Of a stretch of 64,000 nt of DNA, positions 6,501 to 60,976 are shown one piece after another. The stretch lies in assembly GCA_000004985.1 (NCBI GenBank), contig GG738878.1. One strand, written 5' to 3'. Under the pieces are notes generated by a model. That model had not been told where the DNA came from and ran no database searches. It was given only the letters and a program-made list of their open reading frames with translations. Made by a program: the position numbers and the translations under genes. The stretch's first letter is position 1; every line of letters begins with the position of its first letter. Origin of the DNA: Naegleria gruberi (Eukaryota).

Positions 6501-9500
6501 AATTGATTGCTCCTCTTTGTATCAAATCTCTATCACCTTCTTTCTCAGCGAAAAGTTCAGAGGCAGATGCACTGGAGAAAACATATTTGTAATTCAGAGT
6601 GACCACAGAACCTTTGGTCTGATCATAGAGGCCAAGAATTTCCTTGTAAAGAGATGTAGGTTCACTAAGATCCAACAGTTGGATATTTCTTAAACTTCCA
6701 GAAATCGCAACGCTATCTAAATCAATTAGGCATGATATAGTGGTACCAGCATTGATTAATAATTGGGCTATGGTTATACCATTGCTTAGGATAAATACAT
6801 TGGACTCTCCAGCTGTAATTGATGTTGTAAGAAGTTTGCAACTTTCTTGATTACCATCCAATAGCATTTTGGCTATTTCACTAAACTGTTGACCAGCATC
6901 TACTTCATCCTCATCAGGAACATAAGAATAATAATTAATCTTGTTAAAGGCTGATATTTGATCGATAATATCTTGCAAGTCGTAACCGTAGTCAATAAAA
7001 GTAGAGAGAATGGAGGGCTCAACAAAACATTGTAAGCTCTTGAACTCGATTTTGAGTAACATTTGAGAAGAAGGATCATAAATTAAAGAGGTAGGATCTG
7101 TAGATCTGGTGAATGAAACATTGACCAAGTGTTCTTCTGGATTGTTTTCATCTTCTATTGATTTGATAATGTAAAATTCTCTATCTTGCAAAATTTCTGA
7201 TTTTACGTTCATAGAGTGAAGGAATAATTGAATGTTGGTATCCAGATTGTGGTACTGTCGGAAATAAGCGTTCAGATGGGAAAAGTGAATAGAAGCCAAG
7301 TTGAAACTTTGATGAGAAAGAGTCAGTATGAATGAATTCAACTTGAATCTTATGGCTATGAGTACACCTTGTTTTTCTTCCTCCTCATCATCTTCATCGT
7401 CAGAAAAGCTTGCTTCTTTCAAAATATCAGTAATATCATCAATAAAGAAGCTTGTATCGAATGAGTAAATAAACATTCTTAGGGTTGTGATCCAATTTTC
7501 TGTTTCATCCAGAGATGAACATTTGAATTGAATAAATTTCGTTTGATAACCCTTCTTTTGTGGAAGTTCCAATATAAATGTATTTTCTATAGTGTCTGAT
7601 TTGTGTACTTTGGTATGCTTGTTCAAATGTATAATAACATGAAGAAGTCTTGTATCTTCTGTATAAATAAATATCTTCTTAGTACTGCTCACTTCTACGA
7701 AGTAAGGCACAAATTCATTATCTTCATGATTGACTTGTAGAGTTCCCATAATTTTCAAGTCGTTAATTTTCTCCTTTGTACCAGTTGGGTTTTGTTTGAA
7801 TTCTGCTACTAATTGTGTCAACTTTGAAACAGCAAGCATACTCTCTTTGGAAAGAATAAAGTTAATCTTTGGAATATCAAGCAAGAGTTGAACTTTTTCT
7901 TCCACGGTTTCTTCTTTGTGTTTAATAGCACTTGCTGCCAGTGAGGTCTTTTCTAAAATAACATCATATGTAGTAATTTGTTGTTGGTCTGTCAGATATC
8001 CAATAGCATTAATATCTTTAGGAACAACAATTTCCATATTTTCCAGATTGATATCGAACTTTTCTCTGGAAGCTATGCTAGTATCTTTACGCAGTTTGAG
8101 CAATCCAAAATCAAGTAAAAGGAATCTACTGTCAGGATCTGTTGGATTCCAAGGAATGATGATTTGTGGAGCCTTGATATCGAAGGTTAGATCCACAGTG
8201 GTGTCATCTTGCATAAGAACTTCCTTAATCTCCTTTTTGGCCAATTTAGATACTTTCTTGATATGCCTCTTGGCTTCTTTTTCTAAGCGTTTGATATTGA
8301 CATTGTCAAAGTATAAGAATGAAAGTATTCTTTGGAAAAATTCAAAGTTAACTACAATATCGATTTGATTAAGAGCTACCGTCAAATAAATATCACTCTC
8401 TTCATTCTTTTTCTCCAAAGTAGATCGCTTCTCAATGTACAAAGAAAGAAGGTTAGAGGAAGTTTCATTGTACCTTTTAGATTTTGTAATAATTTCAGGA
8501 TAAAGAGTTTGCTTGAATCTATCGAATAATGTTAAATTACCCATAGAAGAACAAACTTTGAATGCTTTGTGAGGTAAAATTTGAATATCTGATACGAATC
8601 TATCTACTTCAAGTTCTAGTAAATCATTTCTTTCGTGATAGACCCTAAATGCTACCTTGGCCAAATCTACGTGGACTCTAACCTTTACATAGTCATCAGG
8701 TATTTCAACGGGTTTCTCTTCATAACCTATAGATTTGTACAGTTCTTCTTTCACCTTATCAGAAAGCTCAATAGCCTTTGCTTGTAGTTTATCTTTCGAG
8801 AACCAGCTTGATTTCTTTTTATGCTCTTCGAAATTCTTTGCTTCCTGATTAATTTCCTTATGTGCACACTTTCTGAAGAACAGAACTTCCTGCAGTGTTC
8901 TTTGATCTTCCAGCTCAGCTAATCTCTTCTCTTCATCTGGGCTGAGCTTTTGCTTGGTTACCCACGGAACTTTTACATGAGTTTTGTAAAGCTTGACGTA
9001 TTCTTTACAATGTAAGCTCAAAATATTTTCATAATGTTGCTTTTTCTTGTCCATTTGTCTCTGAAAATTAACACATTTGAGGGCATACTTCCAATAAGAA
9101 ATGGGGTCAAATTTCTCAGGTCTAAAATGTCGGTATTGGCTTTGGATTGAATAATTTGTAATATATTCCACAATTTTAAAAATGGAATTATACTGATTCT
9201 GACTCAAACACATCTGAATATCATGCACAAAGTGAAAATCAAAATTAAAAACTGGTCTTGTAAAATCTATCCCTGAAGCGGAGAGCTTTTGCATAGTAAG
9301 CTTCAAAAATCCGTCTACTGGTTCCAACAAGTACACTCTGTCATTGGCTTTGATAATGCTCTGTATTATGTCTCTATCGCAAACTTTCTTTTCTATACAT
9401 GTATTTACAAAATCTTCTTTCTCTGTCCAAGGATTCAAATATATCGCCAGCTTGGACATGGTCAATAATTTATAAGTTAATTCTCCTAAATTTTTCTGAA

Positions 9501-10080: not shown

Positions 10081-10484
10081 TTTTGCATTTTTTTTAAAAA
10101 TAAAAATTAAAAATAAATTAGATTCTACAAGTAAGTGATCTCAATCGGTGAGCATTGTAATTTTTGAACACGTATTGTAGTCTAATGAGAAAATCAAGAA
10201 TTTTTTTGGATGATCATTTTAGGCAATCAGGAAATGAAGAGCAAAAACATTTGCAAACCCATTTTGACTCGTTGTCACTTTTGTAATTAATTTTGAAGCT
10301 TCTTTAAACGATGCAATACTACTTGGAAAGCATTTTCCTTCTTTTGCCAAACCCCAACAAATCAACTTGCATCAATTACAGGCGGTATTATATTTCATAG
10401 AGATTCTTATCAAAAAAAACAAATCACATCACCACGCTTCTGCTGGAAGGATAAAGAGCACCAATTCATCAGAAGAAACACATC

Positions 10485-11534
10485 ATGTCGGATACAATCA
10501 AAACAAATCCAGACGATACTCCATTATTGAAAACATTGGAAGGAGTTGATGCTACCAATGCTAGGAAAGAGTTGACAATGGAAGAGGTACATCGGGATTG
10601 GCCACACTTCTTTGTCTATTCCTCCAAAACACCACTCCACCATGCTAAAATCAAGAGAGATTTGAAGAGTGAGCAGGAAAAATTGTGTTTTGACAAGGTA
10701 GAAGAATACGTTCTTTCTGATGCTTTCATCAAGGATGTTGAAAAGTCGTGTTCCGATTCATTTAGAACCCAACAACTTTCACAACGACCTCTAATGAGAA
10801 TTGATTTGGCCAGCATTTCCAACACAGAGCAGGAAGTAGTTGATGATCATGGTTTGATTGTAGATGTATTCAGTTTGTTGAGATTTTGCAATGCCAGAAA
10901 GTTTGACTTGAATAATACCAAAGAGTTACTTACTGAAACAATTTCGTTTAGATTAGAAAAAAAACCACATCTGATAACTAAAGAACAAGTGCAAGTGGAA
11001 ATTTCCAAAGAGAAGGGCGTATGGTGTGGTTATTCAAAGCTGAACAACCCAATTATTTACATCAGTCCACAAAATCATGTGACATATGACAGAGATTTTG
11101 ATACTACCATAAATTTTACACTCTTTATGGGAGAAGTGGGTATGAAAATGATTAGAGAGTACAATCAGAAATATGTACTACCACTATTGTCAACTCAAAG
11201 TGCAGAAGATGTCTTGGAGAAATATGTGGAACAATATGTGATAGTGTATGATGGAAGAACAATTGCTATGAAGAATTGTGATGTAGCCATTATCAAAGAA
11301 TTTTTGAGAATTTCCAATTATTATGCAGAGAGATTGAGTTCTGTTGTTGTATATAGTCCTAATTGGACCTACAAGATTATGCTCAAGATGATTTCACCAT
11401 TTGTAGATAAGAAAACATATGACAAAATCAAAGTAGCCTATGATGTTAATGAAGTGGATGATCTGTTAGAAATAGAAAATGTTCCAACTCAATTTGGTGG
11501 AAAAGCAACAGTGAAATTCAATGAAGACAGTTGA
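10485..11534 (+). CDS. Sec14-like CRAL-TRIO phosphatidylinositol/lipid transfer protein (349 aa)
   Basis: CRAL-TRIO N-terminal motif LLRFCNARKFDLNNTKELLTETISFRL and a Sec14-type C-terminal motif ENVPTQFGGKA. ATG at 10485. Divergent from VPS13, with about 400 bp between the two starts. Confidence 0.8.
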   Translation: MSDTIKTNPDDTPLLKTLEGVDATNARKELTMEEVHRDWPHFFVYSSKTPLHHAKIKRDLKSEQEKLCFDKVEEYVLSDAFIKDVEKSCSDSFRTQQLSQRPLMRIDLASISNTEQEVVDDHGLIVDVFSLLRFCNARKFDLNNTKELLTETISFRLEKKPHLITKEQVQVEISKEKGVWCGYSKLNNPIIYISPQNHVTYDRDFDTTINFTLFMGEVGMKMIREYNQKYVLPLLSTQSAEDVLEKYVEQYVIVYDGRTIAMKNCDVAIIKEFLRISNYYAERLSSVVVYSPNWTYKIMLKMISPFVDKKTYDKIKVAYDVNEVDDLLEIENVPTQFGGKATVKFNEDS

Positions 11535-11895
11535 GCTAATAAGACATTTAACTATTGGCACCTTAGCAGTGAACTACTCAGTAGTACAGTAATCCCAATA
11601 ATCAATTGATTGAAACCTCTTTGTAATTTAAATCATCTTTTTGTAAATTAATTAAACAAAACTCACCTCTTGACGCCTCTTTGCAAATCTTTCATATAAC
11701 CGAGTTGCTAATTTTGTAATTATTTAGAAGAATCTCCACCTCAAAGAACTACATTGAGCCCACAACTACTGCTTCGACTCTAGCCAAATTAACACCAACA
11801 AAAAAAAGCACCAAACAAAATGGTTTCCGACACCAATAACAACAATCAGAGTTGTGCACAACAATTGGATCGCCGACAATTTTTTCATTAAGAAT

Positions 11896-14067
11896 ATGGT
11901 AACAAATTTGAACCATTTTATATATGTGAATATGACAAGGAGTGCAGTGGTGGGAATGCTGCAAATTTTGTGTCAAATAAGCTATGGACCTACATTACCT
12001 CTGCATATATTTTCAGTTTATAAGCTTCTAATTTCTACAGTAACTTTTTATTTTAGTAGACCTCTAGCAATTGTTTCTGCATCAATATTTGTTACATTTA
12101 ATGCTGCTGCTCTTGGTATTTCATTTTGGGTGAATTATGATTCATTAACACAAATCGAAAGGGATTACTTTCCTTTTAGATTTATAGAAATGTTGGTAGT
12201 ATTATATAGCGTGTTTATTGGATCAATGCTTTTCTCAATATTCATTACAGATAAGAATAAGCAATATACAGCTCAACAAATTGAAACTACGAAGGAAAAA
12301 ATTATTAGCTCTGAAAAGACAAAATATATTGCCAATTTGAGTCATGAAGCTAGAAATCCTTTGCACGCCATTAGTGGATCTATTTCAATCCTCAAACATA
12401 ATATCCAATCTGAAGAATGTAGTAATCAATGTCCTCACTGCTATGTAACAAATGGTTCTATAGCTGAATTAGTTGAAGACCTGGAAGAAAACACAACATT
12501 ATTGGAGCATATATTCTCGTCTTCATTACAAGTTAGCTCACTTGAAATGGGAAAAGTTGAGTTAAAAGTTGAAGATACTAACATGTTATGTCTAGTTGAA
12601 TCAATTACTAGTGTTTTCTCTCAATTGGCTAAAACCAAACAACTTTCACTTCACAGTTACTTTAATGTAATTAAGGTTCCAATTTTTTTGAGAGCAGATT
12701 CTGTTAGAGTAAGCCAAGTGGTAATGAATCTTATATCTAATGCCATTAAGTACACAGATAAGGGACATATTAAATTGAATTGTGATACTCTGAGTGAAAG
12801 AGAAATTCGCAAACACTTTCCAACAAAAAGTATTGAAGAGTATGAATTTATCAAAATTGAGTGTATAGATACAGGTAAAGGAATCCCTGAAGCACAAGTT
12901 AAGGATCTTTTCAAACCATTTCATGTTGTTGAACAAGGTCAAAAATCTGTTGACAGCTATATTGCTCAAACAGAAAAAATGGCAGAATTCAAAGATATTA
13001 ATGGTGCTAGTATGTTACTCAATACTAGTCGTAGCAATGGCCTCGGATTATCTATATCAAAAATGCTTATTGATAAGATGGAGGGTGATATTATTGTTTC
13101 CAGTAGTTCGAAAGGTACTAACATGACTATCATTTTACCACTGAGAAGGGTTAAGCCAGAAGTATTGAAGGAAGAACTGGTTCAGAAGAATAACAATTAT
13201 TTAACATGTGACAAGATTTTTGAGATTTTGAATGAAGAAAATGAAAGATTGAATATTATAATTATTGATGAGGATAGATTTTTCAGACACATTATGCTCT
13301 CCTATTGGAAGATGTTTAAGAGAGCTGTTCACATTAGTGCAGAGTATAAAACAAGTATAGAATTTTGTGATTCAGAATTAGACAAGGATTTAATGCAAAA
13401 TACCACAGTTATTTTCTGCCCTGAAAAAGATATCAAACATACAGAGTCCAATTTCAAACATGAACGAGTAGTTTTGATTCCAACCATTTGTAGAGGTAGT
13501 CATAGATTATTTTCGGATCGTATCTACCTTTCCAAGCCAGTGAAATTTATAGATTTGTTGGAATTTGTCTATGAACATATTTTTGATAGAACTGCTTCCT
13601 CCACTCATAGACAAAGTGTTGTGGAAATTGAGAAAATACCAAAAATAATGAAAACCAAGTCAGTACCAGTAATTGAAGAATTCAAGAGTGAAAAAAAAGT
13701 TCTTATAGTTGATGACAATCACCTAAATCTTAAAATATTGGAAAAACTCCTTAGAATATTAGGTTTTGAAGACATTGAAGTTGCCCACGATGGTATGGAA
13801 TGCTTCAACAAGTATAAGAAGAAGAATTATGATATTATTTTATTAGATTGCATAATGCCTATTCTAAGTGGAAAAGAATCTTGTGAGCTTATCAGAAACA
13901 TGGAAAAGCAAGAACACCTAGAACATAGAATCCCAATATTAGCAATCACAGCAAATGTTTGGGAAGATAGAGAATCTCTTATATCTCAAGGTTTTGACTC
14001 TGTTATTTACAAACCTATTCAGCTGGAGAAACTACAAGCAGAAATGATGGCTTTATTGGATGATTAA
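11896..14067 (+). CDS. Hybrid sensor histidine kinase (TM region, HisKA, HATPase_c, receiver domain)
   Basis: H-box ANLSHEARNPLHAISGSISIL. N/G1/G2 boxes MNLISNAIKYTDKGHI / DTGKGIP / NGLGLSISKMLIDKMEGDIIVSS. C-terminal receiver KVLIVDDNHLNLKIL...ILLDCIMPILSGKE...ITANVWEDRE...YKPI. Several hydrophobic segments lie before the kinase. The listed ORF start at 11854 is GTG, so the first ATG at 11896 (MVTNLNHF...) is used. An upstream exon cannot be excluded. Confidence 0.8.
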   Translation: MVTNLNHFIYVNMTRSAVVGMLQILCQISYGPTLPLHIFSVYKLLISTVTFYFSRPLAIVSASIFVTFNAAALGISFWVNYDSLTQIERDYFPFRFIEMLVVLYSVFIGSMLFSIFITDKNKQYTAQQIETTKEKIISSEKTKYIANLSHEARNPLHAISGSISILKHNIQSEECSNQCPHCYVTNGSIAELVEDLEENTTLLEHIFSSSLQVSSLEMGKVELKVEDTNMLCLVESITSVFSQLAKTKQLSLHSYFNVIKVPIFLRADSVRVSQVVMNLISNAIKYTDKGHIKLNCDTLSEREIRKHFPTKSIEEYEFIKIECIDTGKGIPEAQVKDLFKPFHVVEQGQKSVDSYIAQTEKMAEFKDINGASMLLNTSRSNGLGLSISKMLIDKMEGDIIVSSSSKGTNMTIILPLRRVKPEVLKEELVQKNNNYLTCDKIFEILNEENERLNIIIIDEDRFFRHIMLSYWKMFKRAVHISAEYKTSIEFCDSELDKDLMQNTTVIFCPEKDIKHTESNFKHERVVLIPTICRGSHRLFSDRIYLSKPVKFIDLLEFVYEHIFDRTASSTHRQSVVEIEKIPKIMKTKSVPVIEEFKSEKKVLIVDDNHLNLKILEKLLRILGFEDIEVAHDGMECFNKYKKKNYDIILLDCIMPILSGKESCELIRNMEKQEHLEHRIPILAITANVWEDRESLISQGFDSVIYKPIQLEKLQAEMMALLDD

Positions 14068-25859: not shown

Positions 25860-28610
25860 TTAATCATCAATGCAAATAATCTCTGGTGCATCCGTTTTTG
25901 ACTTTTTGTTTGGTGGTTCAATTGAAGATGAGGGAGCAACTTCTAGTTGAAGTGTCGAATTATTATCTGTTGACTCTTCAGGTGGGGTTCTTCTCTTTTT
26001 CAATAAAGATTCCAGTTTAGTTTTAGCTGCATTGTTAAGTTCGGTTGCCTGTTTCACAAGTCTCTCAGAGATCACAAGTTTTGTTAAAATAATTGATTTC
26101 TGAACTCTTTGTTTCTGTATTTCCCTAATTGGAGCAACCATCGATTCAATGTGTGAAAGTTCCTTAACTAGGCCAGTGATTGAACAAGTTCTCTCTGTTT
26201 CTGACCATAAAAATTGTTTTAGAATCTTACAGTCACTACAAATACATGAAATACTAGATTTCACAGAAAAATTTGGTAGGGGAATAATGAACTTCTTTGT
26301 TCTAATTCCATCATCAATTAAATCAATGCTCCAGTTCAGTAGGATATCTAACTGGTCAGATTTAGGCATAATATTCGAAACAACCTCAATGAGTGGAGCG
26401 ACTAGGGTGCTATAATTCTCTTCTGATGCAACACTAAGAACAACGCGGCATGCTCTAGTAATAAAATCATTCCATGAATGGTTATGGAGCATTCGAATGA
26501 AGGAAGTTGCGAATTTCAAATCAAGGAAACAATCTCGATGGTCATATAACATCCATTCTATCAATAATTCACTCAGAGGTTTACAACTCATTGTTGATAA
26601 CACCATATTCAAACAATTTTCACTTGTCAACCATTTAGAGAATGAAAAACGTAGATTTTTCAATTTTTCAACCCCAATTTGATTTGCAATTTTGATTATC
26701 AATGGAAGGTCCAGCTCTTTGTTTTCATAAGAACCTCTTCCTCTTTGATTTGGAATAGAGTTTTTAGCCAATTCTTTTACAATCAATTTCTCATAGATTG
26801 AGGTGTCCTTCAATAAGTCTATCAACTTTGTAATACTTTCCTTATAACTGGCATACTTATAATAATCTTCCACAATATTTTCTACTACTGTTGAATGCAT
26901 TGAATATGTACATTTTTGTGCAAGTATTATTAATTTTTCAAAGCAGCTGCTATCGTATAAATGGTCATACTTATTGACAGAATACTTTGGCATTGTCATT
27001 TGTATCAACGGCACGTCATTGATTTCAATTAGAGAGCCAATAAATTCCTTCATATATCGTTTTTTACATAAATTTTCGCTAATAGTTTCTCTAAACGGTT
27101 CAATTGTAAAATGAGAAATAAGAGAAGATAAACTTTTTTGGTCTATTCCGATAACCAGTTTTGCCAATTCGACATCATTGAGCTGAATAATAGATTGAAT
27201 TACAACTTTTTCTTCATCACCCCATAAGTAGATGTTTTTCTTGGCCAGCATCTGCTTTACAAATGCAATAGAATTCTCTCTAGAGTTTGACTCTATGAAT
27301 GAAGGTAATATTTTGCTACAAAATGAAAATCCAAACTTGAGGCAAATTCTTTGTTGGCACTTCTTTGGATAAATCATTAGACATGCATTTCTGTATTGCT
27401 TTTCTTTTGTTGACCCCTCATTTCCAGTATTTTCGTTAATGGACTTGTGGAATAGTTTCATGGAAGACAGAGCAGACTTGCAAACAACACTTCTGAAAGG
27501 AACGTCTATTTTACGTTGTTGGGATCCAAAAATATACTCGAGTGATACTTCTGGATCGTCAAAACCTTCCACCTTCCTCTCCATAATTCCTAAATCTAAA
27601 ACAAGGTCTTGATATTCCTCAGCATACCTTTCCAGAATATCGTAAATATTGTAATCAGAACCTTTAAGATTTTCAGGATCCAAACTCTTTTGAGAATATT
27701 GGTGCTGAAATACATACATTCTGTAGAGAGTGTCAACATCTTTTGCATCAGCATTCCACTCAGAAACTATTTGTTGAAGTCTTTTGGCTAATTCTTCATA
27801 ACCTTTAAGTGTTGGCTTACTTTCTTTGTTACCTGAAAAACAAAGGTTATATATCAAACAAACTCTGTAACCAGAATTTACATTCTTAATCATGTGCTCA
27901 CAATCTGCATAAAAAGAAATAAAGTGAGGAGTATATCTAGAAACAGATGCAAAATCATATTCTTCCTCTTCCTCTCCGTGTCTAACTATTATTTCACCTC
28001 CACTATATTCCGAAGGAAGTTGAACAACTAGTGTTCCAAACATTCGTTCTTCCTTTTCCGAATCTTTGTGAAATTGAAAGTGACCTCCCTCTTCATATAC
28101 TAATAGCTTGTATAAATTAGCTGAGAGTCTGAGATGTTTACTAATTCCCAAGCCATCCCTAATTTCATTATCCACTAAACCGTCAATCAAATCATCCCAA
28201 GTTGGATTTGTAATTTCAAATCTTGATGGATCTAATTGCCATGTTTTTCTAACATTTTCATCGTAAATTGTATCCTCTCCTCTTCCATATGGTGCCTTAC
28301 TGCAAAATTGAATTAGCTCTGAAGCACTCCCATTCGACAATGGAAATCCAATTGTTTTAAATTGTTCATTATCCAACTTGAGTTGCAAACCTGGTAAACC
28401 AAAATCGCTGTCCAATGCACCACACTGCGTAAATTTACTTCCTCCCTTGTTTTGAGCATCCAAAATAAATTCTTGTAAATTGTCTGATGTTTTAATGGTA
28501 TCAGCATGAAGTTGAACACAATCATCATAAAAATCGGAACCGTAAGCTTCACAATAGTCACTGTCTGTTTCCGATGATTCTGATGAGGAAGAAACTCTCC
28601 TTCTGGTCAT
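25860..28610 (-). CDS. 2-oxoglutarate/Fe(II)-dependent dioxygenase domain protein (P4H/PKHD-like DSBH core) with an unrelated C-terminal region of about 650 aa
   Basis: Residues about 150-270: LYKLLVYEEGGHFQFHKD (Y..GG...HxD), then ERMFGTLVVQL...GGEIIV, then ..CEHMIKNVNSGYRVCLIYN (second His, then Arg at +10). This is the canonical HxD...H...R facial triad and 2OG-binding pattern. The C-terminal 650 aa are helical and unassigned. Real ATG at 28610. Confidence 0.6.
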   Translation of the reverse strand: MTRRRVSSSSESSETDSDYCEAYGSDFYDDCVQLHADTIKTSDNLQEFILDAQNKGGSKFTQCGALDSDFGLPGLQLKLDNEQFKTIGFPLSNGSASELIQFCSKAPYGRGEDTIYDENVRKTWQLDPSRFEITNPTWDDLIDGLVDNEIRDGLGISKHLRLSANLYKLLVYEEGGHFQFHKDSEKEERMFGTLVVQLPSEYSGGEIIVRHGEEEEEYDFASVSRYTPHFISFYADCEHMIKNVNSGYRVCLIYNLCFSGNKESKPTLKGYEELAKRLQQIVSEWNADAKDVDTLYRMYVFQHQYSQKSLDPENLKGSDYNIYDILERYAEEYQDLVLDLGIMERKVEGFDDPEVSLEYIFGSQQRKIDVPFRSVVCKSALSSMKLFHKSINENTGNEGSTKEKQYRNACLMIYPKKCQQRICLKFGFSFCSKILPSFIESNSRENSIAFVKQMLAKKNIYLWGDEEKVVIQSIIQLNDVELAKLVIGIDQKSLSSLISHFTIEPFRETISENLCKKRYMKEFIGSLIEINDVPLIQMTMPKYSVNKYDHLYDSSCFEKLIILAQKCTYSMHSTVVENIVEDYYKYASYKESITKLIDLLKDTSIYEKLIVKELAKNSIPNQRGRGSYENKELDLPLIIKIANQIGVEKLKNLRFSFSKWLTSENCLNMVLSTMSCKPLSELLIEWMLYDHRDCFLDLKFATSFIRMLHNHSWNDFITRACRVVLSVASEENYSTLVAPLIEVVSNIMPKSDQLDILLNWSIDLIDDGIRTKKFIIPLPNFSVKSSISCICSDCKILKQFLWSETERTCSITGLVKELSHIESMVAPIREIQKQRVQKSIILTKLVISERLVKQATELNNAAKTKLESLLKKRRTPPEESTDNNSTLQLEVAPSSSIEPPNKKSKTDAPEIICIDD

Positions 28611-28657: not shown

Positions 28658-29767
28658 TCACAACACGTTTAAATGTAGTTCTACCTTTGCTGTGATATAA
28701 TCCCAATAATCAATCTCCAAATGATTGAGACCCTCTATTTCGACTTTGTAATTTAAATCTTTTTGTAAATTAATTTGAGTTTTTACAGTGTCATCCAATT
28801 CAAGTTGGGTGTTGTTTAGAGAGTTTATCTTTTTCAAATCCAATTCTTCCAGAGGCATCCAACAATCCTTCCACTTTGAAATCAATTGAGGAGCATTGTC
28901 AAAATCATTCAAATGAACTCCAATCCATGACATTCTGGAACAAGTTTGAAGCACCCAATAATGCCAATCTTCGGTGGAGTCTACACAACTATGGATGGTC
29001 AGATTCTCCTTCTCATTTTCAAATGATAACGAACCATTCATGTAAACATTGGCAATTTCAGCTCCATAAGGATCACCATCTGTGAGTGTGAAAATATTCA
29101 AACTTCTCCTTTGATATTTTGCTACTTGCTTTGTTAGTGTTACAATAAAATCTCTTGTTGGAACATCAGGATATCCCTTAGATGTGATTATTAATGATGT
29201 ATCTTTGAGACTGCTTGCTTGACTTTTCAACACTTGAAAAACTGACTCTTTTTCAACAATGATCACCTTATCTACTTCAACAGGGATAGAGAACTCTACA
29301 ATTTGTAAATGAGGAATCGAAGGAAGATTACACCCTTTAGAAGCACTGACTATAGTTGTTGTTGGTTGTTGTCCTCTATTTTCAATATCAATCAATGAGA
29401 TTTCCTTCCAAGCAATTGGTCCACAAACTTCTCCCTTCGATTGAGGAACAATATGAAGATCATGCCTATTAACTCGCCAACTTGATGATAAATCCTTCAA
29501 TATGGAATCTAGTTGTGTCTGATCTTTTAGAATAGGCTTGTTACAATAATACAAATCTCTCTTGGTTGAAAATTTGTTTAAAGTACACAACTGATACACT
29601 AAATTCATCACCTGAAACTTGGAAATAAATGTTGATGGATATTTGGTCAGATCTTTCAGCAAGAAGCCTTTTTCATTCGGAATATCAGATGATGGTGATG
29701 AAACTAATTCCCTCACAAAGGCTAAAACTTTCTCCTCAATTCTTTCTCTCACTTGAATTGTTTCCAT
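28658..29767 (-). CDS. SPO11: SPO11 / topoisomerase VI subunit A homologue (meiotic double-strand-break transesterase)
   Basis: Winged-helix 5Y-CAP region with catalytic Tyr in FSTKRDLYYCNKP. Toprim domain with the conserved Glu in VIIVEKESVFQVL. ..LIITSKGYPDVPTRDFI.. and the DxD metal motif in IFTLTDGDPYGAEIANVY. All are in the order and spacing expected for Spo11/Top6A. 369 aa. Confidence 0.85.
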   Translation of the reverse strand: METIQVRERIEEKVLAFVRELVSSPSSDIPNEKGFLLKDLTKYPSTFISKFQVMNLVYQLCTLNKFSTKRDLYYCNKPILKDQTQLDSILKDLSSSWRVNRHDLHIVPQSKGEVCGPIAWKEISLIDIENRGQQPTTTIVSASKGCNLPSIPHLQIVEFSIPVEVDKVIIVEKESVFQVLKSQASSLKDTSLIITSKGYPDVPTRDFIVTLTKQVAKYQRRSLNIFTLTDGDPYGAEIANVYMNGSLSFENEKENLTIHSCVDSTEDWHYWVLQTCSRMSWIGVHLNDFDNAPQLISKWKDCWMPLEELDLKKINSLNNTQLELDDTVKTQINLQKDLNYKVEIEGLNHLEIDYWDYITAKVELHLNVL

Positions 29768-29820
29768 TTTTTAAATTAGAAATTAATTTATTATTATAAT
29801 TATATTAATATTTAGGAGGA

Positions 29821-30441
29821 TTATTGGGTTGGTTTTGACTTAGCAGCAAGAAGTTTTACTCTTCTGTTATATTCTTCACGATTAGTGACATAGAGATGGA
29901 AAGGTTCAGCTTGAGCAGGATCCTTTTCGTTAGGATTATCCAACAATTCTTGAATACCTAAAAGTAATTGTTTGACAGTGAGAGAAGGCTTCCAATCCTT
30001 ATCTTCATTCAAAATACTCAAACAAACAGTACCACTTGGGAAAATGTTTGGATGGAAAAGTGGTGGTACAAATTTACACTTTGGAGGCTTGTCTGGATAT
30101 TCATCAGGGAATTCAATATCTAATCTATATTCACCTCCTTCCCATATTGTACCTGGTTTACCTGGGATACCACAATTCCATACCATTACATTAGTTGTTC
30201 CGTCTTCTTGTTGTTGAGGTCTGGCCCAGAAACCCTGTTATTGTTGTTGTTGTTAATTTTCATCACACAATTTTGTCAATTATTGTCATCATTAAAATCA
30301 ATTTAATTATTTGGTGATCGGAAGAAAATATTCTTTATATATCGATATTAAATTACACCTCAAAACAATACATACATAAGGGTGGTCCTTTCTCCAGTTC
30401 TTTCTCTCTTCCATAACTCTCTTTCTAGCGATGGAGGACAT
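29821..30441 (-). CDS. UBC9: UBC9 SUMO-conjugating E2 enzyme, two exons 30441..30376 and 30234..29821
   Basis: Exon 1 [22 protein letters not shown]|GTATGT. A 141-nt intron follows. Exon 2 [112 protein letters not shown].. is collinear with UBC9 (RKAWRKDHPFGF...[47 protein letters not shown]). Confidence 0.9.
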
Positions 30442-30827
30442 TTTGTTCAATTTTTGCTTTTTTTTAAATTTTTGAAAACAATTTTTATTTTTATTAAAAA
30501 ATTGCATGGCGCGGATTTCTACAAGCTTCCTGCTCAACATTCAGCAGAGAACAATGTTATTTGTTTAATGACGAATTCATCATCTGTGCTACCAAAGAAT
30601 TAATAACAAGGATTTAATTGTGTGGAAACAATTATTTTCTTCCACTATTTAGTGTAAGAGAATAATAATAGAGAAGAACAAAACGTGATTGTATTAACAT
30701 TGATGGATTTTCAACCACATGACTATGAAATTGGTTATCATGAAATTCCGAGAACCCTCTCATAGAATATTTTCTCTAGATTTTGAATTGGTGGGCAGAA
30801 TAGAAGTGCCAACAGGTTACTATTTGG

Positions 30828-31193
30828 ATGTTAGTCTCACAAGTACATAATGCATTGGTTGTTGGTCGGGGTGATAATTTGATTTTCTTTGATTTGCAAT
30901 CAAAAAAGCTATTATTTCATTACACCATTCGTCTAAAAATTCAAAATTTGATAATTAAGGAAAATGATTTGTTCATTGTTTGCTCAGACTACTGTTTGAG
31001 GAGCCTTAATTTTCCAAGGTCTTCAAAAAAACAGGTATCACCAAAAGAGGGACAGAGTTTTTATTCAATATTCTATGACGAGGATAGCCACCGAATTTTT
31101 GTTACTAATTCCTCTAACGTATTTGTGTTTGATAGAGAGCTTAACATGTTGAAATCATTTGCTTTGGGTTCAAGATTGGATTGTATGGAGTGA
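30828..31193 (+). CDS. Hypothetical ORF (121 aa), weakly beta-propeller-like; status as a gene uncertain
   Basis: ORF only. The segment ..HRIFVTNSSNVFVFDREL.. is WD-strand-like but has no firm motif. It may be an exon of a larger unresolved gene between UBC9 and the Ubl gene. Confidence 0.25.
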   Translation: MLVSQVHNALVVGRGDNLIFFDLQSKKLLFHYTIRLKIQNLIIKENDLFIVCSDYCLRSLNFPRSSKKQVSPKEGQSFYSIFYDEDSHRIFVTNSSNVFVFDRELNMLKSFALGSRLDCME

Positions 31194-31285
31194 GAATTGA
31201 CCCAAAAACAGGATATTGTTATTTGTGTGAAAGTACTGATGGCACAATTTCAATTTTCAAATAAGTTTTTGTTGTAATTTTTGTA

Positions 31286-31570
31286 ATGAGTTCTCAACAT
31301 GAACTTTGGTGTATGCATGACACGAAACATCAAAAAAAAATGCAAATACAAGTCAGAACATTATCAGGAGGTTACCTCAAGTTTGATTTGGAAAATTCAG
31401 ATAAAATAATATATTTGAAGAAACTCATTGAGGAAAAGATTGGATTTAGCATTGTCAATCTACGATTAGTATATAATGGAAAGATTCTCCCAGACGATTC
31501 CTCAATAATCGATACTGGCTTAAAGAATGGTGATATCATTCATCTCACTCCCCAATTAAAAGGAGGTTGA
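31286..31570 (+). CDS. Small ubiquitin-like protein ending in a free Gly-Gly (possible ubiquitin-like modifier)
   Basis: MQIQVRTLSGGYLKFDLENSDKIIYLKKLIEEKIGFSIVNLRLVYNGKILPDDSSIIDTGLKNGDIIHLTPQLKGG-stop aligns position-for-position with ubiquitin (MQIFVKTLTGK...[35 protein letters not shown]). An in-frame upstream ATG at 31286 would add 18 residues; otherwise the start is at 31339. Confidence 0.6.
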   Translation: MSSQHELWCMHDTKHQKKMQIQVRTLSGGYLKFDLENSDKIIYLKKLIEEKIGFSIVNLRLVYNGKILPDDSSIIDTGLKNGDIIHLTPQLKGG

Positions 31571-31756: not shown

Positions 31757-33089
31757 ATGTCTTCACTACAATCCTCTCCGTCTCTCAGACAGGTTAGATT
31801 TGATGAGAATGTGATGATTGAGAGTTTTAATAGTACTGTTGCATATGCTTCTTCTACAACTTCCGATTCTCCTAAAGGCTTTAGAAAATCATCAATTTAT
31901 TTAACTTTAATATTTGCGAGCATGTTTATAATTTTCGATTTAATGTTACCACTGTATAATAAGAGTTTATTTGCAGGATTTGGATCGCGAGGAGGATTTC
32001 ACTATCCAGTAACATCATCGTTGATACAGGTTGGAGGAACTTCGATTTGCTTACTGGTGGCAGTTGTTTTAAATTGGATAATCAAGACTAAATTATTGGA
32101 TTTACCTCATCCTTATTTTGTGTTTAGTGGTGGATTGAAGCAATTCTTTTTGAAAATGTAAGTTGAATGAGGATGAAATTTGACATTTTGAAAGTAAGGA
32201 GCTTGTGTTGGTTGCATTTCTATTTGCTTGTGTTATAGTATTGAGTAATTTGGGATTGGATAAGGCTTCTATTAATGTAAATGTTTTATTGAGGACAACG
32301 AGTATTATTTGGATAATAATTTTATCATTTTTATTGAGATCTGAAAGACCATCTCTATTGCAAGTATTATTTGCATTATTAGTGACAGCTGGAGCAGTGT
32401 TATTGAGTTTGGATGTTGGACTTGGATGGTCGGTCAAGACAACTAATATTCCTGCTGTGATTGTTAATTTGGCATCTGCTCTTTGTACTGGTATCATGTT
32501 TGTTTCAATGAGATTTGTTGTGGCGAGACAGGAAAAGTATGAACATTTGAGAATGGGACTTTTGGAAATGACCATGGTTAAAATGTTTATGGCAACTTTA
32601 TTTATTGTAATTCCAGCATTGGCAATGGAAACTATTGTTCCATTTGCAGATGCCAAAGTAACAGTATGGCAAATATTATTTACAAAATTGGATATGTTAG
32701 TAATGGTCTTGGGAGGAGTATTGATCACCTTACTATTCCAAGGTTCCATTCTATCTTTGACAGTTTACTCAAAAGCTCTCAGTGTTGGAATCATTCAACA
32801 ATTTATGATATTTCCACAAGTTGCTTTATATACTATCATTAGTGTAACTCATCTGGTACCAAGAAATTGGAATATTCAAGTATTGCAACCAACATGGTCA
32901 CATATTACTGGTGGATCGTTAATTATTGCTGGAACTTTCTTTTATGGAATTTTGAGAATTGTTAAAACAATTGACCAAAAGAGAAGAATGAAGCAATTAC
33001 AGGATTCTCCATCGATCAATGAAGAAACAACATCTCTGGTCAATTCCAAAGAGCAAATACCTAAAAAGTGGTATGATTGGATTATTTAA
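31757..33089 (+). CDS. Multi-pass membrane transporter, DMT/SLC35-like (about 10 TM), two exons 31757..32157 and 32195..33089
   Basis: Exon 1 ends ..GGLKQFFLK-AT|GTAAGT. A 37-nt intron ends GAAAG. Exon 2 (TAAGGAGCTTGTG...) continues in frame as I-KELVLVAFLFACVIV... The listed ORF 32205..33089 starts at GTG, consistent with being internal to an exon. The product is hydrophobic throughout, with repeated 5+5 TM halves typical of drug/metabolite or nucleotide-sugar transporters. Confidence 0.55.
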
Positions 33090-33153: not shown

Positions 33154-33777
33154 TTAATAAAAGATGGAATCGATAAGCATCATCAAGAAACCAATCATTA
33201 CCAAAACAGCAACCGATGAAGAAACATGATACAAAACACCACCATAAACAATTGGAGAAGAGGCATCATTCTTAATAGAAGCACCAACACCAATAGTTCC
33301 ATTGTTGGAATTACCTGGATTGTTATTTCCAGGATTAGATGAAGTGGAACAGATTGGAAGTTGAGGAGTACCACTTGTCAAAGTTCCATTGGTAATACCG
33401 ATGGCATTTGGAGCCCAAGCGAATTGAGAAATTGTAGAATTGGTAGTATTAGATCTAAGAAAATCAATAATTTGAACTCCAAATGTGTATTGTGTAAGAG
33501 TGAGGAGAGTTCTCAAGTTTACAACAATTGAAGCTGAATTGATGGAATTAGGTAATGGAGTGGAAATATTGGAAACATTAACAATCCAAACGTAGGATCT
33601 TGAGATGAGAGTATAGTTTGGAGCAATTGCAATAGTTGGATTAATAGTCAATGTCAAATTTGTTTGACAGGCATTTAATTGCGATCCAGAAGGTGACAAG
33701 GTTAAACTTGTTGCTTGAGCATTGATTAGAGCAATACTTGCAATAAGAGCAAGTAATAGAAGAATGAATCTGGTCAT
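33154..33777 (-). CDS. Secreted Ser/Thr/Asn/Pro-rich protein with a C-terminal hydrophobic tail (GPI-anchor-like surface protein)
   Basis: N-terminal signal peptide MTRFILLLLALIASIALINAQA. Low-complexity S/T/N/P-rich body (..NPGNNNPGNSNNGTIG..). The C-terminal hydrophobic stretch VAVLVMIGFLMMLIDSIFY is preceded by small residues (an omega-site-like context). Confidence 0.5.
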   Translation of the reverse strand: MTRFILLLLALIASIALINAQATSLTLSPSGSQLNACQTNLTLTINPTIAIAPNYTLISRSYVWIVNVSNISTPLPNSINSASIVVNLRTLLTLTQYTFGVQIIDFLRSNTTNSTISQFAWAPNAIGITNGTLTSGTPQLPICSTSSNPGNNNPGNSNNGTIGVGASIKNDASSPIVYGGVLYHVSSSVAVLVMIGFLMMLIDSIFY

Positions 33778-44396: not shown

Positions 44397-45257
44397 TTAA
44401 ATATTTATTGTTGCCTTCTTCCATTTCATCTTCTTATTATAAAGATGATTATTAATTTCTTCCTGGAGAGAAATTTTATCAGGGCCTTCATATCGTCTAT
44501 TGATATCCTCCTTAACCTTGATAAGCATGTCTCTGTCTTTGAGCTCGTTGACAATGCATTGAATTGCAATGTCATAAATTCTATATTCATTGGCAATCTC
44601 TGCCTTGAGTTCCATTTCAGTTTTCTGGAAGGAAAATGATTGAAGTAAATCTCTAATCATTGGTATTGGAGCTCTGAATAACTTCAATACTTGCATAACA
44701 TTGTAAATATTGAGAATTGAGTTTGAATCAGCTCTGTTTGGTTTTCCTGTTAGCAATTTCATAAATCCACTATTTCCCTTTTGCATTTTCATATCGTAGG
44801 CAGAACAATAACAAAGGCCATCCTTTTGTGCCTTTGAATAGGCAATCATTACCCCCTTCCAATCACCAATTCTACTTCTTGCAACAATGGCATCATAAAA
44901 AAATCTATGTTGTGAGAGGTCAAAAAATTTGGCCAATGTTCTAGGACAAGCAATTTGATCATCTGGAGCAGCATTGTGATAGAATAGGCAGTATTTCATA
45001 GTCTCAGATAAAGTACTTCCATAAATTGGGAACTTTTTGTACTGTTTGAATATTGGATGTTTTCCTGAAAGAGCAATTGAATTATCTTGTTCATCAATTT
45101 TAAGTTGTTTTGCTGTTAAATGAATTAAATTGGCAGTGGCAATACTGAGCTCTTCTGCACAATCTAGAGAATATTTGTTAGATTTAAACCCAACTGGATT
45201 ATCAATAGCTTGTGCATTCTTTTGAATAAAAGAAAGACAATGTTCCAATGAATCCAT
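44397..45257 (-). CDS. Hypothetical protein (286 aa)
   Basis: Intact ORF with a real ATG. No recognisable motif. Confidence 0.45.
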   Translation of the reverse strand: MDSLEHCLSFIQKNAQAIDNPVGFKSNKYSLDCAEELSIATANLIHLTAKQLKIDEQDNSIALSGKHPIFKQYKKFPIYGSTLSETMKYCLFYHNAAPDDQIACPRTLAKFFDLSQHRFFYDAIVARSRIGDWKGVMIAYSKAQKDGLCYCSAYDMKMQKGNSGFMKLLTGKPNRADSNSILNIYNVMQVLKLFRAPIPMIRDLLQSFSFQKTEMELKAEIANEYRIYDIAIQCIVNELKDRDMLIKVKEDINRRYEGPDKISLQEEINNHLYNKKMKWKKATINI

Positions 45258-45298: not shown

Positions 45299-46708
45299 TT
45301 ATTTGATAATACTTACATCAGTAATTGTGATTGCCATCTTGTATTGAAGCAAAGCTTCATCTCTAATCATGTTATTGAATTTGTAAACCCTTTGAAGAGT
45401 TTTGTTGTCTCCAAGTTTCTTGAGGAATGAAATATAGGTCAAGACGAAAAATCCTGTCTCCCTATCAGCTTCAATTAAAACCTCCATGAAAGATCTAAAT
45501 GCCAGAGATTGTTCAATTGAAATTATTACTGGAATAATGACATCATAATTTCTTCCACAACTCTTCAAAAGAGCTACCTTTTGCTTTGACTCTCTGAGTC
45601 TTCTTAAATTACACCAGGCATCCAATTCTCTTTCTTGATTGGAAAATTGATCATTAGATCTATATTTATATTCATAATCCTCATCCAATGACTCGTTAAT
45701 TAATTCCTCCTCCTCATCAATTACCTCTTTATAAACTGGTGGCTTGGTAACTTTTCTTTTCTTTACCTTATCCAAGACAACCTTATTCAATTCATTAGAT
45801 TCAAGTCCTTCTCTAATTAAATCTCCCAAAGTTTTCACAACAACCTTCTCCTCCTCAAAGTAATCATCATATTTAGAGGAAGCGCTTTTTGGAGTTTCAC
45901 TAACAAAATCCTCCAATGAATTATTGGAATGTTCCAATTCCTTTCTGAGCTTGTGATTTTCCTCTTCCAATTTGAATAATTGTTTCTTTAATTGTTCGAA
46001 ATGTTCAAATGAAAATTCAAATTCCCTTGTTTGTCTCTTTTCTGATTTTTCAGTAGATTTAACAACCATTGGAGTTTCACTTTTTTCATTAACTACTACT
46101 GCTTTTGGAGAAATATTTAAAGATCCACTTGAAGGCACACGTGTTGGCAGAGGTTTAGTACTACCCACTGATGCTTCATTCATTGGTTGTTGTTGTTGTT
46201 GTTGATGTGAATTAGGAGGAGGTGTAGTTGATGTTTTTGATGAAGGAGGAACTGTTGGTAAATTCTTCTTATTATTTGCTTGAGGTGTCATTGGTAAACT
46301 CTTTGAAGGAATTGGAGGCTGTGTTGGAAGATTATTGATGAATGAATCGACATCGAATGGTTCAGCAGAGGCCTTACTGTTATTATTATGTTGTTGTTGT
46401 TGTTGATTATTTGTAATTATATTATTGGATGAAGAATTTTGTTTGTTACTAGTCGATGTAGTGGTGGTGAGGGAAGAAGGAAGAGGAGGCAATGAAGATA
46501 ATCGTGATGATGAACTATCAGGAGTTTCAATATGATCGTACAAATCTTCGGAATTAATAGAGAAGAAATTGGAGGCTGTTTCTGTAGCTGTTGATGAATC
46601 TGTAGTTGCTTCTTGGGATGATTGGAATTTACCTCCAGAGAGAAGCAAGATGGGATCATCGTCCTCTACTCTCTTTTGCATTTCACGCTTCTTACTCACC
46701 CAAGACAT
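45299..46708 (-). CDS. Hypothetical protein with Ser/Thr/Gln/Asn-rich N-terminal half, a coiled-coil and a structured C-terminal domain (469 aa)
   Basis: Real ATG at 46708. poly-Q/N/S/T low complexity, then a coiled-coil (QLKKQLFKLEEENHKLRKELEH). The C-terminal 120 aa are non-repetitive. No family assigned. Confidence 0.45.
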   Translation of the reverse strand: MSWVSKKREMQKRVEDDDPILLLSGGKFQSSQEATTDSSTATETASNFFSINSEDLYDHIETPDSSSSRLSSLPPLPSSLTTTTSTSNKQNSSSNNIITNNQQQQQHNNNSKASAEPFDVDSFINNLPTQPPIPSKSLPMTPQANNKKNLPTVPPSSKTSTTPPPNSHQQQQQQPMNEASVGSTKPLPTRVPSSGSLNISPKAVVVNEKSETPMVVKSTEKSEKRQTREFEFSFEHFEQLKKQLFKLEEENHKLRKELEHSNNSLEDFVSETPKSASSKYDDYFEEEKVVVKTLGDLIREGLESNELNKVVLDKVKKRKVTKPPVYKEVIDEEEELINESLDEDYEYKYRSNDQFSNQERELDAWCNLRRLRESKQKVALLKSCGRNYDVIIPVIISIEQSLAFRSFMEVLIEADRETGFFVLTYISFLKKLGDNKTLQRVYKFNNMIRDEALLQYKMAITITDVSIIK

Positions 46709-46904
46709 TTTTTGATTATAATTTAAATATAATTATTATTAAAATTATAAATTATTTAAATATTGATTTTTCCCGGTTGACATGAAATTGGTTTCGTATT
46801 GCACATTTTCCATAATTATAGCATTCCACATTCTCTCTTAGTTATAAATTTATTATTTAACAAAGCAATGTACAAGTGCCATGATGGCAGTTTATTTCCT
46901 CAGC

Positions 46905-47544
<640 letters not shown>

Positions 47545-47872: not shown

Positions 47873-49928
47873 ATGACAATAAAAAATATGAAAACTTCTT
47901 CCACATTTGCCTCCTCAAGCAATAAGTCTTCCTTATCATCAATGCGAGGAAGTGGATTGAATAAATTATTTTGTAGTAATAATGATTATTATCGGAAAAG
48001 TGTTTGGATATTTGTGTTGATTTGTTCGGTATGGATGATCATGATTGGAAGTGGAGTGGATGCATATAGAATTAATTTTGATGAAAGTCATGGGAGTGTA
48101 AGTGTTCTTTTTTGATCTTTGTGTGGAAAGAGAGATTTATCAATATTTGTGGAATTTTCAAATTATTTAGTTTACTTCGGATGTAACTCAGGGAAAATTA
48201 TTGGATGAATATGAATTGGGAATGTATGCTAGAGAGGATCTTCCATTGAGAGTTTTAACAAGACCCATTGCTAATGGTGACACATTTGTTCAAGTTTATT
48301 GTAAGTACACTATTTAATGATACAATATATTTACGAGGTTTTTTTAGTAAATGTTAAACAATCAAGCATTCCAACTCCTGATACCAAATTAGTTCTCATT
48401 GTTGCTAACAGTGAGATACTTGCAACTGGTTTTAAGAAGGATCAGAAAGTATGTAATAATTATTAATTCTGTTTGGATCTGATTGAAATTATATTTTAGA
48501 ATGAATATTTGTGTGGAGACGAAGGATTAGTTCCAACTTCTCAAAGCACACTCGATGATGATGGAATTTTATATTACAAATATTTCAGTGGAGATGAAGT
48601 AATTGATGAGAATTTCGAAGTGCCATTAACAGGTCTCTACCAATACAAATTATTCTACTGTCCTGCCACTAACCCAACTAAGGAAAGACCAAAGTCTGGT
48701 GAAGCCAATTTCAAAATGAATGGTTACATTCAATTCATCAATCCATATGGTCACTTGCCAGGTCAATATTTCTTCTTCTTGCCAGTATGTATATTTGCTT
48801 AATATTTTCCTAATAATTCAATTCCAGTTCCAAGCATTCATGACAATTGCTTATATTGTTTTTGCTGTCCTTTGGTTTTTGGCCTCTATTTTCAATAGAA
48901 AGGAATTCTTAACTCTCCAATTCTACATTACTATTGTCTTGATGAGTTGTTTAGCAGAAGCTTTGATTGTCTATTTTGATTACTTTTTAACTAACAAAAT
49001 TGGAAGTCGTAACTTTGTTGTTCAACTTTGCTCAATGGTTATGACTGTCATTAGAAAGACTTGGACTAGACTCATCATTTTGGTGGTTTGTTCAGGATAC
49101 TCAAGTGCCACAAAGGAGGAGGATGATGAATCATCTGAAAATACCTCTTCTCAAAAGAAAGTAACAACAACCATGATCATTATTTATTCAGTTATATTTG
49201 CAATTTCATGCTCAGTTTCAGAATTTGGAGAATTTTTATTCTTTAGAGAGCTCATTTCACACACTCAATATTTGATCTCCATGGTTCCAACATCCTGCTT
49301 GGATTTCTTCTTCTATGTCTGGGCTCTTTACTTGCTCTACCATACTATGAAGATGTACAAGCCTTCAAATCCAAAAGCTGTCACTGCCAGAGAAAGGGCT
49401 TCCCCAGAATGGAAACATGCAGTTGCCAATAACCACTACTTCTACTTGTATAGAAGATTAATGTTTGCCATGATTATTTACGCTTGGACTGTGCTTATTT
49501 TCTTAGTTCTCCAATTCTTCTACGAATATGGTCAATACTACAGAAGTGCTTGGTATTTGAACTGGCTTTTTGACTCTGCATCTTACCAAATTGCATTCTT
49601 TGCCTTCTTTGTTTTAGTTGGTTTATTGTACAGACCTGCCAAACACAACTCACTTTACTTACATTCTGAACAACTCCCAACTGATGAATTGGATGCTGAT
49701 ATGATGCTAAAGGAAGGTACTGGTCTCGAATATCAAAGTGACGATAGTGATGAAAAGGATGTAGAAATGATGATGATGCAAAATAATGAGCCAATATCTA
49801 ACGATGACGAATCTGACTCTAAGGAAAGCAGAAAGAGTCAAGAAAAACTTGTATTCTCTGAAGATCATGAAACCCCAACAAGTACAACTCCTGCAGTTGA
49901 GAAGGTTGAGACCACCACTCAACAATAA
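47873..49928 (+). CDS. GPR107/GPR108/TMEM87-like (lung-7TM-receptor family) membrane protein, five exons
   Basis: Exons 47873..48097, 48171..48300, 48348..48448, 48500..48784 and 48828..49928, joined by GTAAGT/GTATGT...AG introns of 73, 47, 51 and 43 nt with consistent phases. Signal/TM at the N-terminus. Luminal domain ..DEYELGMYAREDLPLRVLTRPIANGDTFVQVY/LNVKQSS..LVLIVANSEILATGFKKDQK/NEYLCGDEGLVP..LFYCPATNP... Then a seven-TM block (FMTIAYIVFAVLWFL..LQFYITIVLMSCLAEALIVYFDYF..LCSMVMTVIRKTWTRLIILVV..) and an acidic C-terminal tail. Confidence 0.75.
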
Positions 49929-60903: not shown

Positions 60904-60976
60904 TGCTGACGGACGGGATCGAACCGGCGACCAATGGCTTATTAGACCAACGCTCTACCGACTGAGCTACGCCAGC
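60904..60976 (-). tRNA. tRNA-Ile, anticodon AAT
   Basis: Minus strand GCTGGCGTAGCTCAGTCGGTAGAGCGTTGGTCTAATAAGCCATTGGTCGCCGGTTCGATCCCGTCCGTCAGCA folds as a 73-nt cloverleaf. The 7-bp acceptor stem includes one G·U pair. The D-arm is GCTC/GAGC with an AGTCGGTA loop. Conserved residues U8, A14, G18, G19, U33, purine 37, G53 and TΨCGA are present. The anticodon loop is CTAATAA, giving anticodon AAT. There is one mismatch each in the anticodon and T stems. No CCA is encoded, as in eukaryotes. Confidence 0.75.

Follow-up and report, generated by a model that had tools for sequence, protein, structure and literature searches.

The window analysed in this study is a stretch of 64,000 nucleotides from contig GG738878.1 of Naegleria gruberi NEG-M (GCA_000004985.1), with a G+C content of 29-36% across its whole length. 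Three genes at positions 28,658 to 31,570 are considered here: SPO11, which encodes the enzyme that makes meiotic DNA breaks; UBC9, which encodes the SUMO-conjugating enzyme (E2); and a small gene for a ubiquitin-like (Ubl) protein. The first two lie head-to-tail on the minus strand and the third on the other strand. In a preliminary description of the locus it was proposed that this linkage could reflect co-regulation of the three genes. The observation was confirmed, with all gene positions holding (SPO11 at 28658-29767, the UBC9 stop at 29821 and the Ubl at 31340-31570), while the interpretation was partly supported. The features of the locus are as follows:

28658-29767, minus strand: SPO11 / topoisomerase VI-A family gene, single exon, 369 amino acids
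29768-29820, minus strand: spacer from the UBC9 stop to the SPO11 ATG, 53 nt, A/T-rich
29821-30234, minus strand: UBC9 exon 2 including the stop codon (29821-29823), HPN motif at residues 83-85, catalytic Cys93
30235-30375, minus strand: UBC9 intron, 141 nt, GTATGT...AG
30376-30441, minus strand: UBC9 exon 1, 22 residues, ATG at 30441
31340-31570, plus strand: Ubl gene, 76 amino acids, MQIQ...LKGG followed by TGA

Two Pfam domains were found in the SPO11 product, TP6A_N (2e-13), which is the winged-helix 5Y-CAP domain, and TOP6A-Spo11_Toprim (2e-28). Its closest solved structure was yeast Spo11 8URQ (3e-16, 62.7 bits), followed by S. shibatae Top6A (54 bits). Like yeast Spo11 and archaeal topoisomerase VI-A, it combines a 5Y-CAP domain carrying Tyr and Arg with a Toprim domain carrying Glu and DxD. 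It had been claimed that all catalytic residues are intact, and alignment bore this out: R70, Y74, E172, D230 and D232 correspond to R131, Y135, E233, D288 and D290 of yeast Spo11 and are invariant in a six-sequence alignment of the N. gruberi protein with five heterolobosean orthologues. The protein is fast-evolving, identity being 47-51% among Naegleria species and 41% to the Willaertia orthologue. Its N-terminus could be aligned with those annotated for N. lovaniensis and N. fowleri SPO11, which carry a low-complexity insert of about 55 residues after the N-terminal helix that is missing in N. gruberi. Since the proteins of these two species are longer only through this insert, the ATG at 29767 was taken as the true SPO11 start.

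The meiotic double-strand-break activity of this SPO11, together with a TOPOVIB-like partner, is a predicted function. It has been reported that no diagnostic motif separates meiotic Spo11 from topoisomerase VI-A and that assignment to a meiotic clade (SPO11-1 or SPO11-2) rather than to topo VI-A/SPO11-3 needs phylogeny (PMC11302465). Spo11 of N. gruberi was listed as Joint Genome Institute (JGI) models 50278 and 81222 in Table S2 of Herman et al. 2021 (PMC8296547). Since model 50279 is the 497-amino-acid gene 4 kb away in the same window, the SPO11 described here is probably model 50278, an assignment based on consecutive numbering. Furthermore, two SPO11 orthogroups and a complete meiotic toolkit were found in the Naegleria pangenome (PMC9928731). 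The intact SPO11, which had been put forward as evidence for a meiotic capacity, is such a sign, but one that is already established and not new (PMC8296547 Table S2; PMC9928731).

A match to the C/D small nucleolar RNA family snoR114 of Rfam inside the 5' part of the SPO11 coding sequence (29661-29744, minus strand) was rejected as probably due to chance. It is full-length, reaches 37.9 bits (E = 1e-4) against a gathering score of 45, and has an imperfect C box and no terminal D box; the orthologous loci give no match.

The identification of the upstream gene as UBC9 was settled by an exact match, the spliced 159-amino-acid product being identical to EFC42676.1 / XP_002675420.1 (NAEGRDRAFT_69370, UniProt D2VKF0, 'SUMO-conjugating enzyme UBC9'). 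It matches Pfam UQ_con at 1e-45, and its best 28 matches among solved structures are all UBC9/SCE1 (203-235 bits, full-length alignment), the next E2 class being Rad6/UBE2A at 126 bits. It shares with human and yeast UBC9 (UBE2I) the length of 159 residues, the HPN motif and Cys93, and nothing notable sets it apart from them. Identity of UBC9 among Naegleria species is 87%. By these comparisons the gene is a true orthologue and its product unambiguously a SUMO E2, which is predicted to form a thioester with SUMO.

Synteny and spacing of UBC9 and SPO11

The locus was compared with those of N. lovaniensis (L001), two N. fowleri assemblies (L002 and L003), Willaertia magna (L004), the nearest SPO11 relative (L005) and a heterolobosean metagenome contig, ERZ27315067 k141_1175198 (L006). 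In N. lovaniensis and in both N. fowleri assemblies, SPO11 (47-49% identity) is directly preceded on its own strand by a UBC9 of 159 residues. The synteny check proposed with the preliminary description thus came out positive for these two species, but not for the more distant lineages: no UBC9 was found within 10 kb of SPO11 in W. magna, nor in the 768 bp that precede SPO11 in L006, which hold a different open reading frame (ORF). L005, whose SPO11 is 65-69% identical, stops where SPO11 begins and says nothing about the adjacency. In a neighbour-joining tree of SPO11 with the topology (Willaertia, (L006, ((N. gruberi, L005), (N. fowleri, N. lovaniensis)))), the pair-less L006 and Willaertia fall outside the pair-bearing clade. 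Since the pair is present in three Naegleria species and absent in L006 and Willaertia, the simplest history is a single origin in the common Naegleria ancestor. No report of a SPO11-UBC9 linkage was found in a literature search.

The genes on both sides of the pair differ between the species. In N. lovaniensis (L001, 4954-8724) and N. fowleri (L002, 4941-8702), SMC2 (condensin) is divergent from UBC9 at a distance of about 300 bp, and an EamA-like transporter comes next. The N. gruberi window has no SMC2; in its place are frame-broken ORFs and the Ubl gene, ahead of the same EamA-like transporter. On the other side, TauE and ArsB follow SPO11 in N. lovaniensis, N. fowleri and L006, and an unrelated gene of 916 amino acids does so in N. 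gruberi. Homologues of the adh_short and SET genes of L001 are found 13 kb away in the N. gruberi window. Among the N. lovaniensis adjacencies around SPO11, 1 of 10 survives in N. gruberi.

SMC2, UBC9 and SPO11 form a run of chromosome-biology genes in N. lovaniensis and N. fowleri. The SMC gene beside UBC9 was also considered as SMC5/6, the SUMO-ligase scaffold, and this was rejected because the gene is SMC2. L006, which is basal to the sampled Naegleria, keeps the order SPO11-TauE-ArsB without an upstream UBC9, and different lineages retain different pieces of the ancestral SPO11 neighbourhood.

As a control for retention, the neighbourhood of a GOST_TM gene located 19 kb away in the window was used. 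In N. lovaniensis its orthologue shares a 738-kb contig with SPO11, about 31 genes away, and the 22-kb neighbourhood of this orthologue (L008) was compared. The control pair consists of the following genes:

46903-47272, minus strand: second E2 (UQ_con) gene, divergent from GOST_TM, the pair being adjacent in L008 at 8765-12179
48174-49928, plus strand: GOST_TM seven-transmembrane gene, synteny control together with the E2 gene

At this locus, 1 of the 12 N. lovaniensis adjacencies survives in N. gruberi, namely the E2 gene beside GOST_TM, and a third gene of the neighbourhood is still nearby in changed order. The SPO11 and GOST_TM loci together keep 2/22 adjacencies, a sample too small for a firm statistic. 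The UBC9-SPO11 pair has been retained about as well as the functionally meaningless E2-GOST_TM pair.

The distance from the end of UBC9 to the start of SPO11, given previously as about 50 bp, was measured as 53 nt. The spacer contains a single AATAAA, about 19 nt ahead of the SPO11 ATG; therefore, the 3' end of UBC9 and the promoter/5' end of SPO11 must overlap. At the same place N. lovaniensis has a spacer of 242 nt and N. fowleri one of 221 nt, and that of N. gruberi has nothing recognisable in common with either. Other gaps in the window are similarly short: 47 nt separate SPO11 from the next same-strand gene, and 11 and 53 nt were measured between convergent genes. Spacers of 10-55 bp are common in the window, and the tightness of UBC9 and SPO11 is not special. 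Since the retention, on this small sample, and the short spacing are both in line with what is usual locally, passive microsynteny would account for the linkage, and a functional explanation is not needed.

The ubiquitin/NEDD8-type gene near UBC9

A 76-residue protein of the ubiquitin fold ending in Gly-Gly-stop had been reported on the other strand, about 0.9 kb from UBC9 and next to it. The gene is as reported, with its ATG (31340) 898 bp from the UBC9 ATG (30441). The proximity therefore stands, but the two genes are not immediate neighbours because a chain of ORFs (30703-31275) lies between them. The Ubl reading frame could be extended 18 codons upstream to 31286. The closest homologue, P0014, is encoded on a metagenomic contig (L007), has 78 residues, is 75% identical, starts with MQIQ and ends with LKGGSL; no other close homologue was found among 5.8 billion proteins. 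The DNA similarity between the window and L007 starts within 2 codons of the MQIQ ATG and stops at the Ubl stop codon. Since the homology starts there, the 76-residue protein is supported and the 18-codon extension is not. Comparison with P0014 gave dN 0.18 and dS 0.95, with a ratio of nonsynonymous to synonymous substitution (dN/dS) of 0.19 (Nei-Gojobori). By these rates, the Ubl is a genuine gene under purifying selection.

The location of the gene is not shared with its relatives. On L007 the homologue lies between Arm-repeat and Kelch-repeat genes, the contig carries neither UBC9 nor SPO11, and the rest of it has no match to the window. No Ubl counterpart was found within 10 kb of the pair in N. 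lovaniensis or N. fowleri, nor within that distance at the Willaertia locus. The linkage of the Ubl to UBC9, which was part of the earlier proposal, is thus not syntenic in the only close relative, and SMC2 occupies that position in N. lovaniensis and N. fowleri.

Comparisons by sequence and predicted structure place the Ubl in the ubiquitin/NEDD8 class rather than with SUMO. The Pfam ubiquitin family scored 51.8 bits against 28.3 bits for Rad60-SLD. Among monomers, Arabidopsis RUB1 scored 51, NEDD8 48 and ubiquitin 35 bits, and SUMO1, SUMO2 and Smt3 scored 9-13 bits; the reference sequences of the latter three were entered by hand, and the NEDD8 and ubiquitin scores match a separate search exactly. 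An AlphaFold2 model with a confidence (pLDDT) of 88.2 shows a beta-grasp fold with a beta-beta-alpha-beta-beta layout. The best Foldseek match of this model was NEDD8 (3GZN chain I, TM score 0.90), ubiquitins reached TM scores of 0.85-0.92, and SUMO2 appeared only at rank 42 with 20% identity. The Ubl shares the beta-grasp fold and the Gly-Gly end with SUMO1, SUMO2 and Smt3, but it has no N-terminal extension and its tail is LKGG, not Q(T/I)GG. The preliminary description had suggested testing it as a substrate of Ubc9 or of a ubiquitin E1/E2; with scores of the ubiquitin/NEDD8 type, it is unlikely to be a Ubc9 client.

Within its class, the Ubl is equally far from ubiquitin and NEDD8 by identity. 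Ungapped identities are 28/76 to human NEDD8, 27/76 to yeast Rub1 and 27/76 to ubiquitin, whereas ubiquitin and NEDD8 share 44/76. All 76 residues align with NEDD8, Rub1 and ubiquitin without gaps, including Gly75-Gly76. Leu8, Lys27, Lys48 and His68 are kept as in ubiquitin and NEDD8, and Glu31-Glu32 as in NEDD8. P0014, with two residues past the Gly-Gly, resembles a processed precursor. In contrast to both proteins, the hydrophobic-patch positions 44 and 70 are Val and Thr (Ile in the relative), and the Ubl has been found only in N. gruberi and on a single metagenomic contig. It lacks the close to 60% ubiquitin identity of canonical NEDD8, the still higher identity that NEDD8s have to each other and their Ala or small residue 72, and likewise the near-invariant sequence and the Arg72 of canonical ubiquitin.

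Residue 72 is Arg in ubiquitin and Ala in NEDD8 and gates the choice of the activating enzyme (E1); in the Ubl it is Gln. By analogy with this Arg72/Ala72 gating, a NEDD8-type or dedicated E1 would be more likely to act on the Ubl than UBA1, and it is very unlikely that SAE/Ubc9 would do so. The fold-search matches include PDB entries 3DBH, 3DBL and 3DBR, which address E1 gating by this residue. Conjugation of the Ubl to substrates through an E1-E2 cascade is predicted.

Wider searches for relatives were made. In an exhaustive HMMER search with a profile of the two Ubl sequences, the best 150 matches were all polyubiquitins or multi-Ubl proteins, whose summed scores swamp those of monomers, and the search did not aid classification. 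A scan of JGI metagenomes yielded only L009 (contig Ga0172367_10044797, 828-1073), a near-canonical ubiquitin of another family. This ubiquitin has a three-residue tail (…RLRGGVDF) and was detected only through the start MQIQVRTL that it has in common with the Ubl, and the remaining ORFs of its contig are giant-virus-like.

No exact match to the Ubl, the SPO11 product or the product of the 916-amino-acid ORF was found in a collection of 15 billion proteins, which seems to be short of some N. gruberi models (GOST_TM gave a 100% match only from ENA), so that absence from it is weak evidence. A further hint comes from GenBank numbering: since EFC42676 (UBC9) and EFC42677 (a 207-amino-acid gene) are consecutive, the Ubl, and perhaps also the EamA-like transporter, appears to be without a GenBank protein model.

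Explanations of the gene arrangement

The arrangement is probably that of an ordinary gene-dense stretch of N. gruberi DNA with three independently working genes, in which the pair was inherited and the placement of the Ubl is coincidental. SPO11 is the already catalogued meiotic break-making enzyme with its active site intact, and UBC9, directly upstream on the same strand, is the housekeeping SUMO E2. Their tandem would have a single origin, in the ancestor that N. gruberi shares with N. lovaniensis and N. fowleri, and may have been kept passively because the tiny spacer leaves few rearrangement breakpoints. The Ubl is a lineage-restricted modifier of the ubiquitin/NEDD8 type, made in N. gruberi in the mature Gly-Gly form and held by purifying selection; it would be activated by ubiquitin- or NEDD8-type E1/E2 enzymes and not by the SUMO machinery, and its position 0.9 kb from UBC9 would be a coincidence specific to N. 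gruberi.

Several points weigh against this explanation. It has been reported that SUMO conjugation regulates meiotic break formation and synapsis in model organisms (PMC7924959), which makes a functional link biologically reasonable, although it provides no evidence for the N. gruberi locus. Synteny between N. gruberi and N. fowleri is low (bioRxiv 10.1101/2020.01.16.908186; PMC6125883); therefore any surviving adjacency belongs to a minority, though not a rare one, and the retention baseline comes from only two loci with 22 adjacencies. Furthermore, the overlap of the UBC9 3' end with the start of SPO11, as read from the spacer, makes some transcriptional coupling by read-through or interference physically plausible. 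This promoter/3'-end overlap is the only route left for the proposed co-regulation; the linkage itself fits passive microsynteny, and nothing at the locus shows co-regulation.

If that route were used, UBC9 and SPO11 would be a transcriptionally coupled tandem unit maintained by selection. Read-through from UBC9 could supply SPO11 mRNA, for example when UBC9 termination is relaxed, or strong constitutive UBC9 transcription could cross the embedded SPO11 promoter and silence SPO11 in vegetative cells (transcriptional interference). Such a unit would account for the 53-nt spacer, in which the lone AATAAA about 19 nt before the SPO11 ATG forces the ends to overlap, and for an order and orientation kept in three Naegleria species despite exchanged genes on both sides. 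However, we consider it unlikely, since N. fowleri and N. lovaniensis have spacers four times as long (221-242 nt), two outgroup lineages lack the pair, and neither tightness nor retention appears special when the next gene follows 47 nt past SPO11 and the control pair is equally retained. It is also quite unlikely that the tandem is a regulatory device of this kind, by interference or read-through, and that, separately, the Gln72 Ubl is a new genus-restricted modifier with conjugation enzymes of its own.

Two other explanations concern the Ubl. The preliminary description had allowed that it might be a polyubiquitin-derived monomer pseudogene, and decay from a polyubiquitin or ubiquitin-fusion gene would agree with its gap-free 76-residue alignment to ubiquitin and its lack of an exact match in the protein collection. 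This is very improbable given a dN/dS of 0.19 at a dS of 0.95, a frame, start and Gly-Gly end that are intact in both the Ubl and its homologue, a ubiquitin identity of only 36% and a confidently predicted fold. The intact, selected and conjugation-competent-looking Ubl, physically close to the pair in N. gruberi, could conversely be the third member of a functional module, conjugated by Ubc9 to regulate Spo11-dependent breaks. Such a module is extremely improbable: SUMO scores 9-13 bits where NEDD8 reaches 48 and ubiquitin 35, there is neither a SUMO-type N-terminal arm nor a QTGG tail, the Ubl is missing beside the pair in N. lovaniensis and N. fowleri, its close homologue is on a contig without UBC9 or SPO11, and a 570-bp ORF-bearing stretch separates it from UBC9.

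To our knowledge, sex has never been observed in Naegleria, and for this reason the control of its meiotic genes would be useful to learn; the UBC9-SPO11 locus does not supply it. Neither SPO11 nor UBC9 is new, and that they lie side by side looks like microsynteny passed down in a compact genome. What can best be defended as new, though modest, is the orphan ubiquitin/NEDD8-like protein with Gln72, which is under selection, looks ready to conjugate and may be a lineage-specific modifier.

Flanking genes and minor features

The genes and ORFs around the three genes are as follows:

25860-28610, minus strand: 916-amino-acid gene with a weak 2OG-Fe(II) oxygenase domain, directly downstream of SPO11 with a 47-nt spacer
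30703-31275, plus strand: frame-broken ORF chain in three frames between UBC9 and the Ubl gene, about 570 bp, longest ORF 30828-31193 (121 amino acids)
31757-33089, plus strand: EamA-like transporter in blocks 31757-~32150 and 32205-33089, weak Pfam EamA match
33157-33777: 207-amino-acid gene, product EFC42677.1
33971-35461: 497-amino-acid gene, product EFC42678.1, NAEGRDRAFT_50279

The 916-amino-acid gene is not syntenic in the other species compared. The EamA-like transporter, with 54-70% tblastn identity to L001 and L002, anchors the synteny with N. lovaniensis and N. fowleri. By three-frame translation, the ORF chain between UBC9 and the Ubl reads as a single beta-rich protein of about 187 residues with three frame changes and no room for introns. 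Its ORFs matched no Pfam family at E<0.08, had no homologue in any of the fetched loci and did not resemble the ORF that precedes the Ubl homologue in L007. Codon-usage log-odds did not discriminate, since a known spurious antisense ORF scored like real genes. The chain may represent a dead gene, a gene that escaped annotation or a problem of sequencing.

A 41-bp 'tandem spacer' (45257/45299) was dropped as an example of compactness because both of its ORFs are exons of one gene. These ORFs, 44397-45257 and 45299-46708 on the minus strand, are collinear with a single N. lovaniensis gene of 724 amino acids (L008, 12297-14580). A scan for bacterial promoters and terminators gave sites no commoner than in shuffled sequence and is irrelevant to a eukaryote. 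The sole tRNA gene detected in the window is a tRNA-Ile (AAT) at 60904-60976 on the minus strand.

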